From the IMG/VR virus record IMGVR_UViG_2721755646_000011: DNA of 64,000 nt, one strand, 5' to 3'. Each line of letters opens with the position of its first letter. The first letter of the stretch is position 1. The position numbers were made by a program. The stretch comes from a virus. Lineage: Duplodnaviria > Heunggongvirae > Uroviricota > Caudoviricetes. Shown here piece after piece: positions 38,001 through 41,000 of the stretch.

Positions 38001-41000
38001 CTTGCAGGCGCATCGCGCGACCTTCAGGAACCAGTTCCCCCCATTGAGAAACAGCAGATGGATCAACACCAGCAGCTTTCGCTACTTTGGCTTTCGTCCC
38101 ATAAAAATTAATTACGTCTGATTTAAACATCACCCCTCCAAAGTTGAGTTTTCTCAATAGTAATCACTCAAGGAATCTCAAGTCAAGGGTGATTAAGATA
38201 TCTAAATATGAACGAGAAAACTTTAGGTCAACGAATTAGAGAAAGACGCAAACAGGTTGGTTTAAGTCAAAACGATTTAAGCAAAGCCGCTGGCGTATCT
38301 GGCTCATCAATTTCACTATGGGAAAGCGACCATACAGCCCCGCGCGGGCAAAATTTGCATCGCCTGGCTGAGGTATTGCAATGTTCACCAACTTGGATAC
38401 TGTTTGGTGACGAGGATAAAACACCAGATCCACCAGTTGCACTCAACAGCGCCTTAGACTTATCGGAAGATGAGTTGGAGATGTTGCGATTGTATCGCGC
38501 ACTTCCAAAATCAGAGCAGCAAGCACAAATCAGCGAACTCCGTGCCCGCGTTGAGAATTTTAATCGCCTATTCACCGAGCTACTAGAAGCTCGCAAACGT
38601 AACAAACATCAGTAACCCCCTTCACAAATTTTAAAGCCTTACATTTCAATGTATTGGCTTTATTTTGCATTAAATATTGAGTTTTCTCATTAAAAATACT
38701 TGACCAACATTCATGAGAAAACTAAATTACCACCCATCAAGACACCGCACGGTGTTCTCAGCAAACAGTTCCGCTACCCGGCGTTAAGGGGAAATGAGGT
38801 CAGCATGGATACTATCGATCTTGGCAACAGCGAATCTCTGGTATGTGGCGTGTTCCCCAACCAGGACGGCACGTTCACCGCGATGACGTATACCAAAAGC
38901 AAAACGTTTAAAACCGAAAATGGTGCCCGTCGCTGGCTGGAAAGAAACTCAGGTGAGTGATATGGATTTCGACACAATCATGGAAAAGGCTTATGAAGAA
39001 TACTTCGAAGGTCTTGCCGACGGCGAAGAAGCTCTCAGCTTCAACGAATTTAAACAGGCGCTTTCCAGCTCGGCAAAATCTAACGGCTGATAAGCGAAAC
39101 AGCACCGCGAGGAATCAGTATGCAGAAACGAGAACCCGTCATCATCGCACCAGACTATACCGATGATGAACTTTATGAGTGGATGCGCCAGAAAATTAAT
39201 GCAGCGCAGGATCTGAAATGGGCCAATGAAGCCAGGGCTAAGCAGGCTGAAAAACTGTCCGCTCTGGAGCAGGATATCACCAATCTGGAAAAAGCAGCGG
39301 CATTAAGCATTGCCAGAATGATTACATACCCGCGTTAATAGCTAACCAACGAAGCTAAGGTTGGTAATTAAGTAGTTCTCCACGGGTGAGGTGGAGTGCG
39401 TGCGCCGGACGCGGGTGAGCATCCGGCACTGACAGTTTACTGAAAGGATATTTCCCTGAAAAGTCAGACCATAACGCGAAAGCGCACGGCGAGGTAGCTG
39501 GTTCATAGATAGCCTGTCGTTAAATTTTCGTCGACCGTGCGCTTCCGGTTGTGGCAACCCGCGAAATGGTGCGGCGGTAAGTATGGCGGGGTTATTTCTT
39601 CCCCGTTGAGGACACCGGGTTGTCAGGTTGACCATACGCTTAAGTGACAACCCCGCTGCAACGCCTTCTGTTATCAATTTTCTGGTGACGTTTGGCGGTA
39701 TCAGTTTTACTCCGTGACTGCTCTGCCGCCCTTTTTAAAGTGAATTTTGTGATGTGGTGAATGCGGCTGAGCGCACGCGGAACAGTTAAAGCTAAAAACA
39801 GCGTTATGGGTGATTCTGTATTCCGGCGTTAATTGTTAACTGGTTAACGTCACCTGGAGGCACCAGGCACCACATCACAAAATTCATTGTTGAGGACGCG
39901 ATAATGGAAACGTCACTACCAAACGTTAATACGTCTGAAGGGTGTTTTAATATTGGTATTCTGCTCAGTAACCGGGAGTTTACTGAAGACGCCATCAGGA
40001 TGAGAAAATATGAGCCTTATCTTCTCAATGATAATTCCATACTCTCCAGAATTGCCCTTCTTGAACTTGGCATTTTCGGAGGGCAGCAGTGAGTTCAGCG
40101 TTTGCACTGATGATGACGGTTTTTCTTATAACAGGTGAGCCACAGAATGTGATTACCGGAATTTATGCCAGTAAAGAATCCTGCCATCAGGCAAGAGACG
40201 AGCAAAAAATTTCCGGTGAATGTCTCCCGTTAAACAAAGTATCGCTGTACCTGAATAACGAAATACCGGCTGGATAACCCGCCAGCCGTATTAACGCCAT
40301 ACCCGTTGATTAAGCATGCCAGCAATGGCAGGGATTCGTACAACCTTAAAATAGTTATGAGGTTTATCAATGAGCACTGATAAAGAAGAAATTGCACTGT
40401 ATTACGAAGCCAAAAATGACAAAGTCAGAAAACGCCTTGGGATTAAAGGCGGTTTTTACTGGCGCACAGCAAAAAAATTATCGGTTGCAATATCACGGGG
40501 TGTTGTCGCAATGGACGATGCTGGATTTGACGAAGAGGATTTCAAAAAACCTGTTCGCGTGAATTTGCCCATTGTTAATGACCTGCCGCCTGAAGGTGTG
40601 TTCGATACTGAATTCTGCAACCGCTATGAAAAAGGCGGGGAAGATGGCATCACAATGATATTTATAGCGCCTTCCCCCTCAGTTCAGGACAAACCAGCCA
40701 GCTCTGACAATACCAACGTCAATGGCGAAGACATGGCTGAGATTGAGGATAATATGCTCCTGCCGATTTCCGGTCAGGAACTGCCCATTCGCTGGCTTGC
40801 GCAACATGGCAGCGAAAAACCGGTAACGCACGTTTCACGGGAAGAACTTCAGGCATTACATATCGCACGAGCTGAAGAACTGCCTGCTGTTACTGCCCTG
40901 GCTATTTCCCACAACACAAAGCTGCTCGACCCGCTGGAGATTCGCGACCTTCACAAACTGGTACGCGACACAGACAAAGTTTTCCCTAATCCCGTTAATT

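Follow-up and report, generated by a model that had tools for sequence, protein, structure and literature searches.

The 64,000-nucleotide stretch of DNA analysed here (hereafter the window) comes from the IMG/VR virus record IMGVR_UViG_2721755646_000011, assigned to the Caudoviricetes, and carries an immunity region built around the gene of a DicA-like repressor of 135 amino acids (aa; 38208..38615, + strand). The predicted protein has a helix-turn-helix N-terminal domain resembling that of the P22 c2 repressor, with S-G-S-S-I-S-L-W-E as its recognition helix; HTH_3 was the only domain recovered in a domain search, and no peptidase domain was found by that search. Its identity to DicA of Escherichia coli K-12 is 56%, and the differences are concentrated in the helix-turn-helix, all three predicted base-contacting helix positions being changed. 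Upstream, on the opposite strand, lies the gene of a DicC-like Cro analogue of the P22_Cro family (75 aa; 37903..38130, - strand), which is 71% identical to K-12 DicC and diverged from it at the N-terminus. Downstream, a ydfA-like gene (DUF1391; 38805..38960, + strand) is the first of the regulated operon, where it is followed by ydfB, ydfC, DicF and a dicB-like open reading frame (ORF). The subject of this analysis is a set of three short inverted repeats placed around the repressor gene, here called S1, S2 and S3, which very probably represent the operators of this repressor.

S1 (38144..38157), the predicted operator on the right-operator (OR) side, reads TTGAGTTTTCTCAA and is a perfect 5-4-5 palindrome (TTGAG-TTTT-CTCAA) that scores 23.7 bits against a position weight matrix (PWM). 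The two predicted operators on the left-operator (OL) side are S2 (38677..38690; TTGAGTTTTCTCAT; 22.0 bits) and the inverted S3 (38713..38726; 21.0 bits), which on the + strand reads ATGAGAAAACTAAA, with 1 mismatch. Four of the five arm base pairs are kept in S2 and likewise in S3, the arm centres lie 9 bp apart, the central tetranucleotide is TTTT in every copy, and all three sites show dyad symmetry and a size suited to a helix-turn-helix dimer. An earlier reading of this DNA (the first-pass annotation) had described a 13-bp palindromic motif repeated at the divergent promoter and again ahead of ydfA. The repetition and its placement were confirmed: the motif lies at 38144-38157 and the 13-mer TTGAGTTTTCTCA recurs at 38677-38689, S1 falls within the 77-bp gap between the ATG codons of the dicC-like (38130, - strand) and dicA-like (38208) genes, and the second copy, said to stand some 60 bp past dicA and just before a TTGACC hexamer, begins 61 nt after the dicA-like stop (38615) and ends 10 nt upstream of that hexamer (38700-38705). 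The description of the motif needs amendment in two respects, since the 14-mer at 38144-38157 alone is a perfect palindrome, the common 13-mer itself not being palindromic and the second copy ending in CTCAT, and since, besides the two copies named, which are real, a third and inverted copy over a -10 hexamer (S3) had been missed.

The motif is also not scattered over the window. When no more than 1 mismatch is allowed, the 13-mer matches at 3 positions in the 64 kb against 0.09 expected, a number that no shuffled sequence reached (0/100), and all three flank the dicA-like repressor gene. In a PWM scan of the window, S1 to S3 were the top-ranked positions by a margin of at least 2.7 bits; only 17 positions exceeded 10 bits, and the next-best scores, 18.3 and 15.7 bits, fell within an 884-aa ORF and within ompW. 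These are also the genes in which the extra matches of the 13-mer at 2 mismatches are found (11946 and 44407; ompW was identified by coordinate mapping to an annotated genome). S1 to S3 are the sole three strong copies within the 64 kb. Chance repetition of an A/T-rich 13-mer would be in keeping with the unremarkable count obtained when 2 mismatches are allowed (5 matches against 1.75 expected in the window scan, not significant by itself), but it fits neither the count at 1 mismatch or fewer, nor the clustering of the sites around one gene, nor their conservation across genera; the count at 1 mismatch or fewer and the pattern-first scan described below exclude it.

A sigma-70 consensus scan over 37800-39200 predicted two promoters only. 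The dicC-like (PR-like) promoter occupies 38157..38186 on the - strand, with a -35 TTGACT (38186..38181), an 18-bp spacer and a -10 TACTAT (38162..38157), and the dicB-operon (PL-like) promoter occupies 38700..38728 on the + strand, with a -35 TTGACC (38700-38705), a 17-bp spacer and a -10 TAAATT (38723-38728). S1 spans the last base of the predicted dicC-like -10 through the predicted +1, and its start is 13 bp from the dicC-like ATG. S2 and S3 bracket the TTGACC -35, with a start-to-start distance of 36 bp, and S3 overlaps the spacer and reaches 4 bases into the -10. Of the three sites, S3 is the best placed to block RNA polymerase, given its position over the -10. Besides, the one asymmetry of S3 (CTAAA for CTCAA) is the base that generates the -10 TAAATT, which suggests a double constraint on this position.

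The overlap of S1 and S3 with the predicted -10/+1 sequences, together with the common occurrence of A/T-rich tracts near promoters, would suit an explanation in which the repeats are conserved promoter-associated sequences or host-factor sites and not repressor operators. However, the motif stands downstream of the -10 at S1, upstream of the -35 at S2 and over the -10 at S3, and thus has no fixed promoter role, and it has the dyad symmetry and size of an operator. Moreover, the -35 hexamers are constant across the immunity types (that of the dicC-like promoter is conserved in all the types compared, and that of the dicB operon is conserved among the OL haplotypes and is the same TTGACC as in K-12 dicBp), whereas the palindromes are swapped together with the helix-turn-helix. 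We consider it improbable that promoter sequence or host-factor binding accounts for the repeats.

The order and orientation of S1 to S3 are kept, with diverged flanks, in HannyBb (repressor 96% identical), in two metagenome-bin contigs and in the Buttiauxella loci L008 (76%) and L009 (75%), which represent two species. HannyBb and L008 have the same S1 as the window and L009 differs from it by 1 change, and S2 is conserved in L003 and in L006-L009. Conservation was also evident among haplotypes drawn from IMG/VR and related loci with repressors at least 96% identical (25 haplotypes on the OR side and 40 on the OL side): the 14 columns of S1 contain 3 variant haplotypes in total, compared with 9, 7 and 5 in adjacent columns, and S3 is nearly invariant, with hypervariable sequence in the preceding 7 bp and in the bases that follow. 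The mean number of variant haplotypes was 0.40 over the 42 site columns, against 1.17 (OR) and 4.57 (OL) in non-site columns (Mann-Whitney p = 1.8e-4, a value to be taken as indicative only because neither haplotypes nor columns are independent samples). Relatives vary at the first base of the 14-mer, and the position that directly adjoins the 14-mer is hypervariable, so that the conserved core can be written TGAG-TTTT-CTCA.

Departures from the common S2 sequence were seen in some IMG/VR loci. S2 reads TTGAGTTTTATCAT in seven of them, belonging to three haplotypes (L018, L022, L034, L043, L058, L077 and L078), and in L022, L043 and L077 the -35 is also altered, to TTGATC; in other IMG/VR loci S2 takes the form TTGAGCTTTCTCAT or TTGAGATTTCT(C/T)AT. 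Such variants may represent operator mutants or copies undergoing decay in cryptic prophages. In addition, metagenome bins labelled Bacillota, Veillonella parvula and Collinsella (L006, L007 and L011) hold contigs with E. coli-type DicA immunity regions, the DicA encoded in L011 differing from K-12 DicA by one residue, and the presence of these contigs in such bins is most likely due to binning contamination.

Comparison among loci revealed that a different recognition helix is accompanied by a different palindrome at exactly the same three positions, six helix types being distinguished in all. The helix S(G/D)SSISLWE of the window and its relatives is found with TTGAGTTTTCTCAA, and SHVSVSQWE, present in K-12 and three others, with the S1-position palindrome TTGTTAGT-N4-ACTAACAA. 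The helix AHVTISQWE (PPompW_699, an Enterobacter locus and phage BUCT708) is found with CCTTAGATTTTCCTAAGG, CTTAGGTTTTCCTAAG or TGTTAGATTTTTCTAACA, all of the form TTAG(A/G)-T-rich-CTAA, while at the S1 position SHVTISQWE of Yersinia is paired with the palindrome TTGTTAGATTTAGTTAAAAA and SHATISLWE of Citrobacter braakii with the hybrid palindrome TTGTTGAGTTTATTTAACAA. Locus L005 (OM816834.1, 'Stenotrophomonas phage vB_SmeS_BUCT708'), for which Stenotrophomonas is the recorded host, has the full DicA/DicC layout, with TGTTAGATTTTTCTAACA as a perfect 7-4-7 palindrome at the position of the K-12 operator Oc and two related sites around a TTGACG -35.

The association was recovered as well when the operators, and not the proteins, were taken as the starting point. 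A pattern-first scan of IMG/VR for S2-N18-26-S3, made with no protein reference, yielded 111 loci with enough upstream sequence, and in 110/111 a DicA-like gene with the helix S-[GDY]-S-[ST]-[IV]-S-L-W-E lies directly upstream; these genes encode 19 distinct proteins, some of them well diverged. The exact S1 palindrome precedes the DicA-like gene in 106 of the 111 loci and a version with 1 mismatch in 4 more, and residue 32 varies (G/D/Y) among proteins that share the same operator. A plain scan of IMG/VR with the 14-mer had returned mostly unrelated environmental contigs, chance matches in a huge collection, and was replaced as uninformative by this S2-gap-S3 pattern. Two operator types also occur in one chromosome: that of O157:H7 strain PV15-279 (NZ_AP018488.1) holds the type described here and a heteroimmune MKNETFG/TTAG type (1656472-1657382 and 2026872-2027522), from which it follows that DicA-like switches of differing specificity coexist in one cell.

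The sites covary with the second regulator too. The putative recognition stretch of the DicC-like protein, DPSAVSQW, is present in all loci with the TTGAG-type operator, is found only there and differs in the other types, and this observation speaks for the explanation that S1 to S3 are operators of the Cro-like DicC homologue only, with the DicA-like repressor recognising something else. The DicA-like helix covaries equally well, however, and K-12 DicA binds a site at the position of S1. Additionally, neither a repeat search nor the PWM scan found another repeated palindrome at the two promoters that could serve the repressor instead, and repressor and Cro share operators in lambdoid switches. 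Exclusive use by the DicC homologue is thus unlikely in our estimation, and since DicC covaries with the sites just as well, it probably uses S1 to S3 alongside the repressor.

Another regulator encoded beside dicC is a YdaT-like protein, a CII analogue (gene at 37368-37919, - strand), and proteins of this kind bind inverted repeats in the immunity regions of Rac and CP-933P (PMC11879457), which raises the possibility that S1 to S3 are its binding sites. Nevertheless, the published YdaT box, TTGATT-N6-AATCAA (PMC11879457), differs from S1 to S3 in both arms and spacing, the box-like match of the window lies elsewhere (37909-37926), and the YdaT-like protein is 96% identical between the window and a locus of different operator type, so that it does not covary with the sites; a role for it at S1 to S3 appears very improbable. 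The box-like match is the inverted repeat GTGATTTTCATTGTTCAA, which lies over the start codon of the YdaT-like gene and matches the published box; in Rac that box overlaps the ydaT ATG, and it is nearly the same in CP-933P (PMC11879457).

Taken together, the positions, conservation and covariation of the sites make it highly probable, as judged from sequence comparison, that a heteroimmune DicA/P22-c2-like repressor has its operators at S1 to S3, as part of the switch that governs immunity in a Qin-like lambdoid prophage. The first-pass annotation had proposed that one repressor controls both promoters, as DicA does in Qin. The proposal of joint control is supported by these same observations and by the published K-12 data, and has to be qualified as regards the regulator: the candidate repressor is a heteroimmune homologue and not the Qin/K-12 DicA itself, its operator differs from Oc, and the DicC-like protein probably shares the sites.

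In the mechanism that we propose, a repressor dimer would read the TGAG/CTCA arms directly through its recognition helices, and the central TTTT would probably remain uncontacted and be recognised indirectly by its DNA shape, as P22 c2 does. At S1, the dimer would cover the -10/+1 of the dicC-like promoter and turn off dicC together with the ydaT-like gene and the replication genes. At S2 and S3, where it would sit at the flank of the -35 and over the -10, it would silence ydfA-ydfB-ydfC-dicF-dicB and the downstream exo/xis/int genes. The repressor is predicted to consist of a P22-c2-type N-terminal domain and a short helical C-terminal part, with no self-cleavage domain. About 6 kb from the switch, an ORF of 86 aa (32147-32407, - strand) encodes a protein with 71% identity to Rem of K-12, the antirepressor of Qin, which relieves the repression of dicBp (PMC10448788), and by analogy the Rem-like protein is likely to be the antirepressor of the dicA-like protein. 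The lack of a peptidase domain and the presence of a Rem homologue make it likely that release would occur through this antirepressor and not through RecA-dependent cleavage.

Several observations weigh against this interpretation and should be considered with it, including the dependence among haplotypes and columns mentioned above. Neither control region has three adjacent operators: the OR side has one strong site, the extra matches there reaching only about 10 bits, and the OL side has two. A single strong OR-side site is unlike the triple tandem arrangement of lambda and P22, and it is the same pattern as in K-12, where Om and Oa are not bound by DicA. In the literature searched, no published binding or expression data for this immunity type were found, and a full-text search of that literature found neither the exact motif string nor a description of this operator type; the primers used in a study of DicA/DicC in O157:H7 match the other paralogue (MKNETFG...). 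As both S1 and S3 overlap -10/+1 sequences, promoter function could explain some of their conservation. Finally, covariation with the sites is seen for DicA and DicC alike, so that the sequence data do not tell which of the two is the binder.

The remaining elements of the region are consistent with a Qin-like module. A full-length DicF small RNA (RF00039, 76.7 bits) is located at 39680-39731, within the operon of the S2/S3 promoter, and the dicB-like ORF at 39904-40092. Between the dicA-like stop and S2, a hairpin with a U-rich tail (AUUUUG) was predicted at 38625..38667 on the + strand (-12.3 kcal/mol, z = -2.9); its core is kept in relatives, and it is probably the dicA terminator, which would shield the dicB-operon promoter from read-through. 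Several E. coli chromosomes, mostly O157:H7, match the region at 100% identity, and in an annotated genome with an identical copy the module belongs to a lambdoid prophage adjoining ompW, in which replication, exonuclease, xis and int genes are retained.

Two weaker elements were noted on the OR side. The first, S4 (38212..38225; ACGAGAAAACTTTA; 9.9 bits), covers codons 2-6 of the dicA-like gene and has the exact 9-mer GAGAAAACT in common with S1. E. coli-type loci retain it, but L008 and L009 of Buttiauxella lack it despite having S1 to S3, and for this reason it was left as a candidate and not accepted as a fourth operator proper; it may reflect autoregulation specific to the E. coli lineage or a coincidence. 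The second, at the position of Oa in K-12 (38193..38206; TTAAGATATCTAAA; 10.1 bits), stands directly before the dicA-like ATG. It includes a -10-like TAAGAT (38194-38199) placed 8 nt ahead of that ATG, no Shine-Dalgarno sequence was found ahead of the same codon, and ATTAAGATATCTAAAT (38193-38207) is conserved even among loci of differing operator type. Being common to different immunity types, this palindromic element was rejected as a type-specific operator, and a promoter/leaderless-start role fits it better; given that the dicA mRNA of K-12 is leaderless (PMC4681348), the element probably comprises the -10 of the dicA promoter and a leaderless start.

More tentatively, and with somewhat less than even confidence, we suggest that the DicA-like family may represent a natural specificity swap on a constant promoter scaffold. 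In P22 numbering, Val33/Gln37 would go with TTA(A/G)N and Ser33/Leu37 with TTGAG, position 32 being free (G/D/Y), and the swapped operators would make coexisting switches orthogonal. If this proposal is correct, prophages would release cell-division inhibitors and DicF independently of one another, each module lying upstream of its own dicF/dicB copy, and at least one O157:H7 chromosome has two such modules. The immunity type described here is carried by 796 of 5426 complete E. coli genomes (~15%), O157:H7 lineages included, and a passage of PMC10448788 cites work linking the DicF copies of O157:H7 to virulence regulation. Knowledge of the operator allows one to predict which prophage dicBF operons answer to which repressor, to design tests of cross-immunity and to read operator decay in cryptic copies. 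These results add a second specificity class to the K-12 Qin model and provide a clean example of covariation between operator and recognition helix, leaving the understanding of such switches unchanged.

Among the known systems, P22 c2 offers the closest solved structure to the N-terminal domain of the dicA-like protein, whose residues 1-72 align to it without gaps (1adr, 2r1j and 3jxb; E = 2e-15). The P22 c2 dimer touches the operator at positions 2-7 and 12-17, makes no contact with the central 4 bp and forces the operator centre into a narrow-groove B' form that is favoured by A-tracts (PMC4267663), and the centre of the window operator is an A/T tract of the kind that P22 c2 prefers. In P22 c2, Val33 lies on the TpA step and Gln37 meets the T of the TTAA half-site (PMC5175364); residues 32/33/37 are N/V/Q in P22 c2 and G/S/L in the dicA-like protein, and the half-sites are one base apart, TTAAG in P22 and TTGAG in the window, the other DicA types having TTAG(A/G/T). 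The P22 operators (ATTTAAG-N4-CTTAAAT) share dyad symmetry with the window sites and extend over 18 bp, whereas positions outside the 14-bp core are hypervariable in the window type. The two systems also differ in that the dicA-like protein has no S24 peptidase C-terminal domain and in that one strong OR-side site is present in the window against three in P22.

The lambda cI/Cro switch follows the same logic, with a PR-like promoter that diverges from the repressor gene on one side, a PL-like promoter that points in the same direction as the gene on the other and one operator type at both, and a leaderless repressor mRNA, as in lambda cI, is probable in the window. In contrast to the triple tandem operators of lambda, spaced at 23-24 bp, the OL sites of the window bracket the -35 at 36 bp, and the RecA-cleavable domain of the lambda repressor has no counterpart in the dicA-like protein.

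The architecture of the K-12 Qin switch has been known since the 1980s, and the layout of the window matches it closely. Both have the gene order dicC <- -> dicA -> ydfA-ydfB-ydfC-dicF-dicB, a single strong palindrome that lies over the dicC -10/+1 and a pair of sites bracketing a TTGACC -35 (ATGTTAGCTATAGCATACAA at the S2 position and ATGTTAGTCATGGCTAATCT at the S3 position in K-12), as well as a short repressor without a cleavage domain and a Rem-like antirepressor gene nearby. The distances are also close, Oc starting 14 bp and S1 13 bp from the dicC ATG, and the OL sites being spaced at 35 bp in K-12 and 36 bp in the window. It has been demonstrated that K-12 DicA binds Oc in vivo, that a change of one base in Oc abolishes binding, and that Oc overlaps the -10 of dicCp, the transcription start site of dicC having been mapped by 5' rapid amplification of cDNA ends (PMC3441716). 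The sequence-predicted Om and Oa are not bound by DicA in vivo (PMC3441716), and dicC and dicBp are repressed by DicA, which enables transcription of its own gene (PMC3441716, PMC10448788). For the assignments of Oc, Om and Oa, which originate from Béjar et al. 1986, Yun 2012 and Ragunathan 2023 served as secondary sources. The differences lie in the operator itself, Oc being TTGTTAGTCATAACTAACAA (20 bp) with a TTAGT half-site and the window type being TTGAG-TTTT-CTCAA with a 14-bp core and a TTGAG half-site, and in the state of the element, since Qin is cryptic, whereas the window prophage retains xis and int as well as genes for replication and recombination, and the deposited phage genome HannyBb has an immunity region nearly identical to its own. 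Altogether, the scaffold is Qin-like, but the operator and the portions of the two regulators that read DNA have been swapped, as is classical for heteroimmune lambdoid modules.

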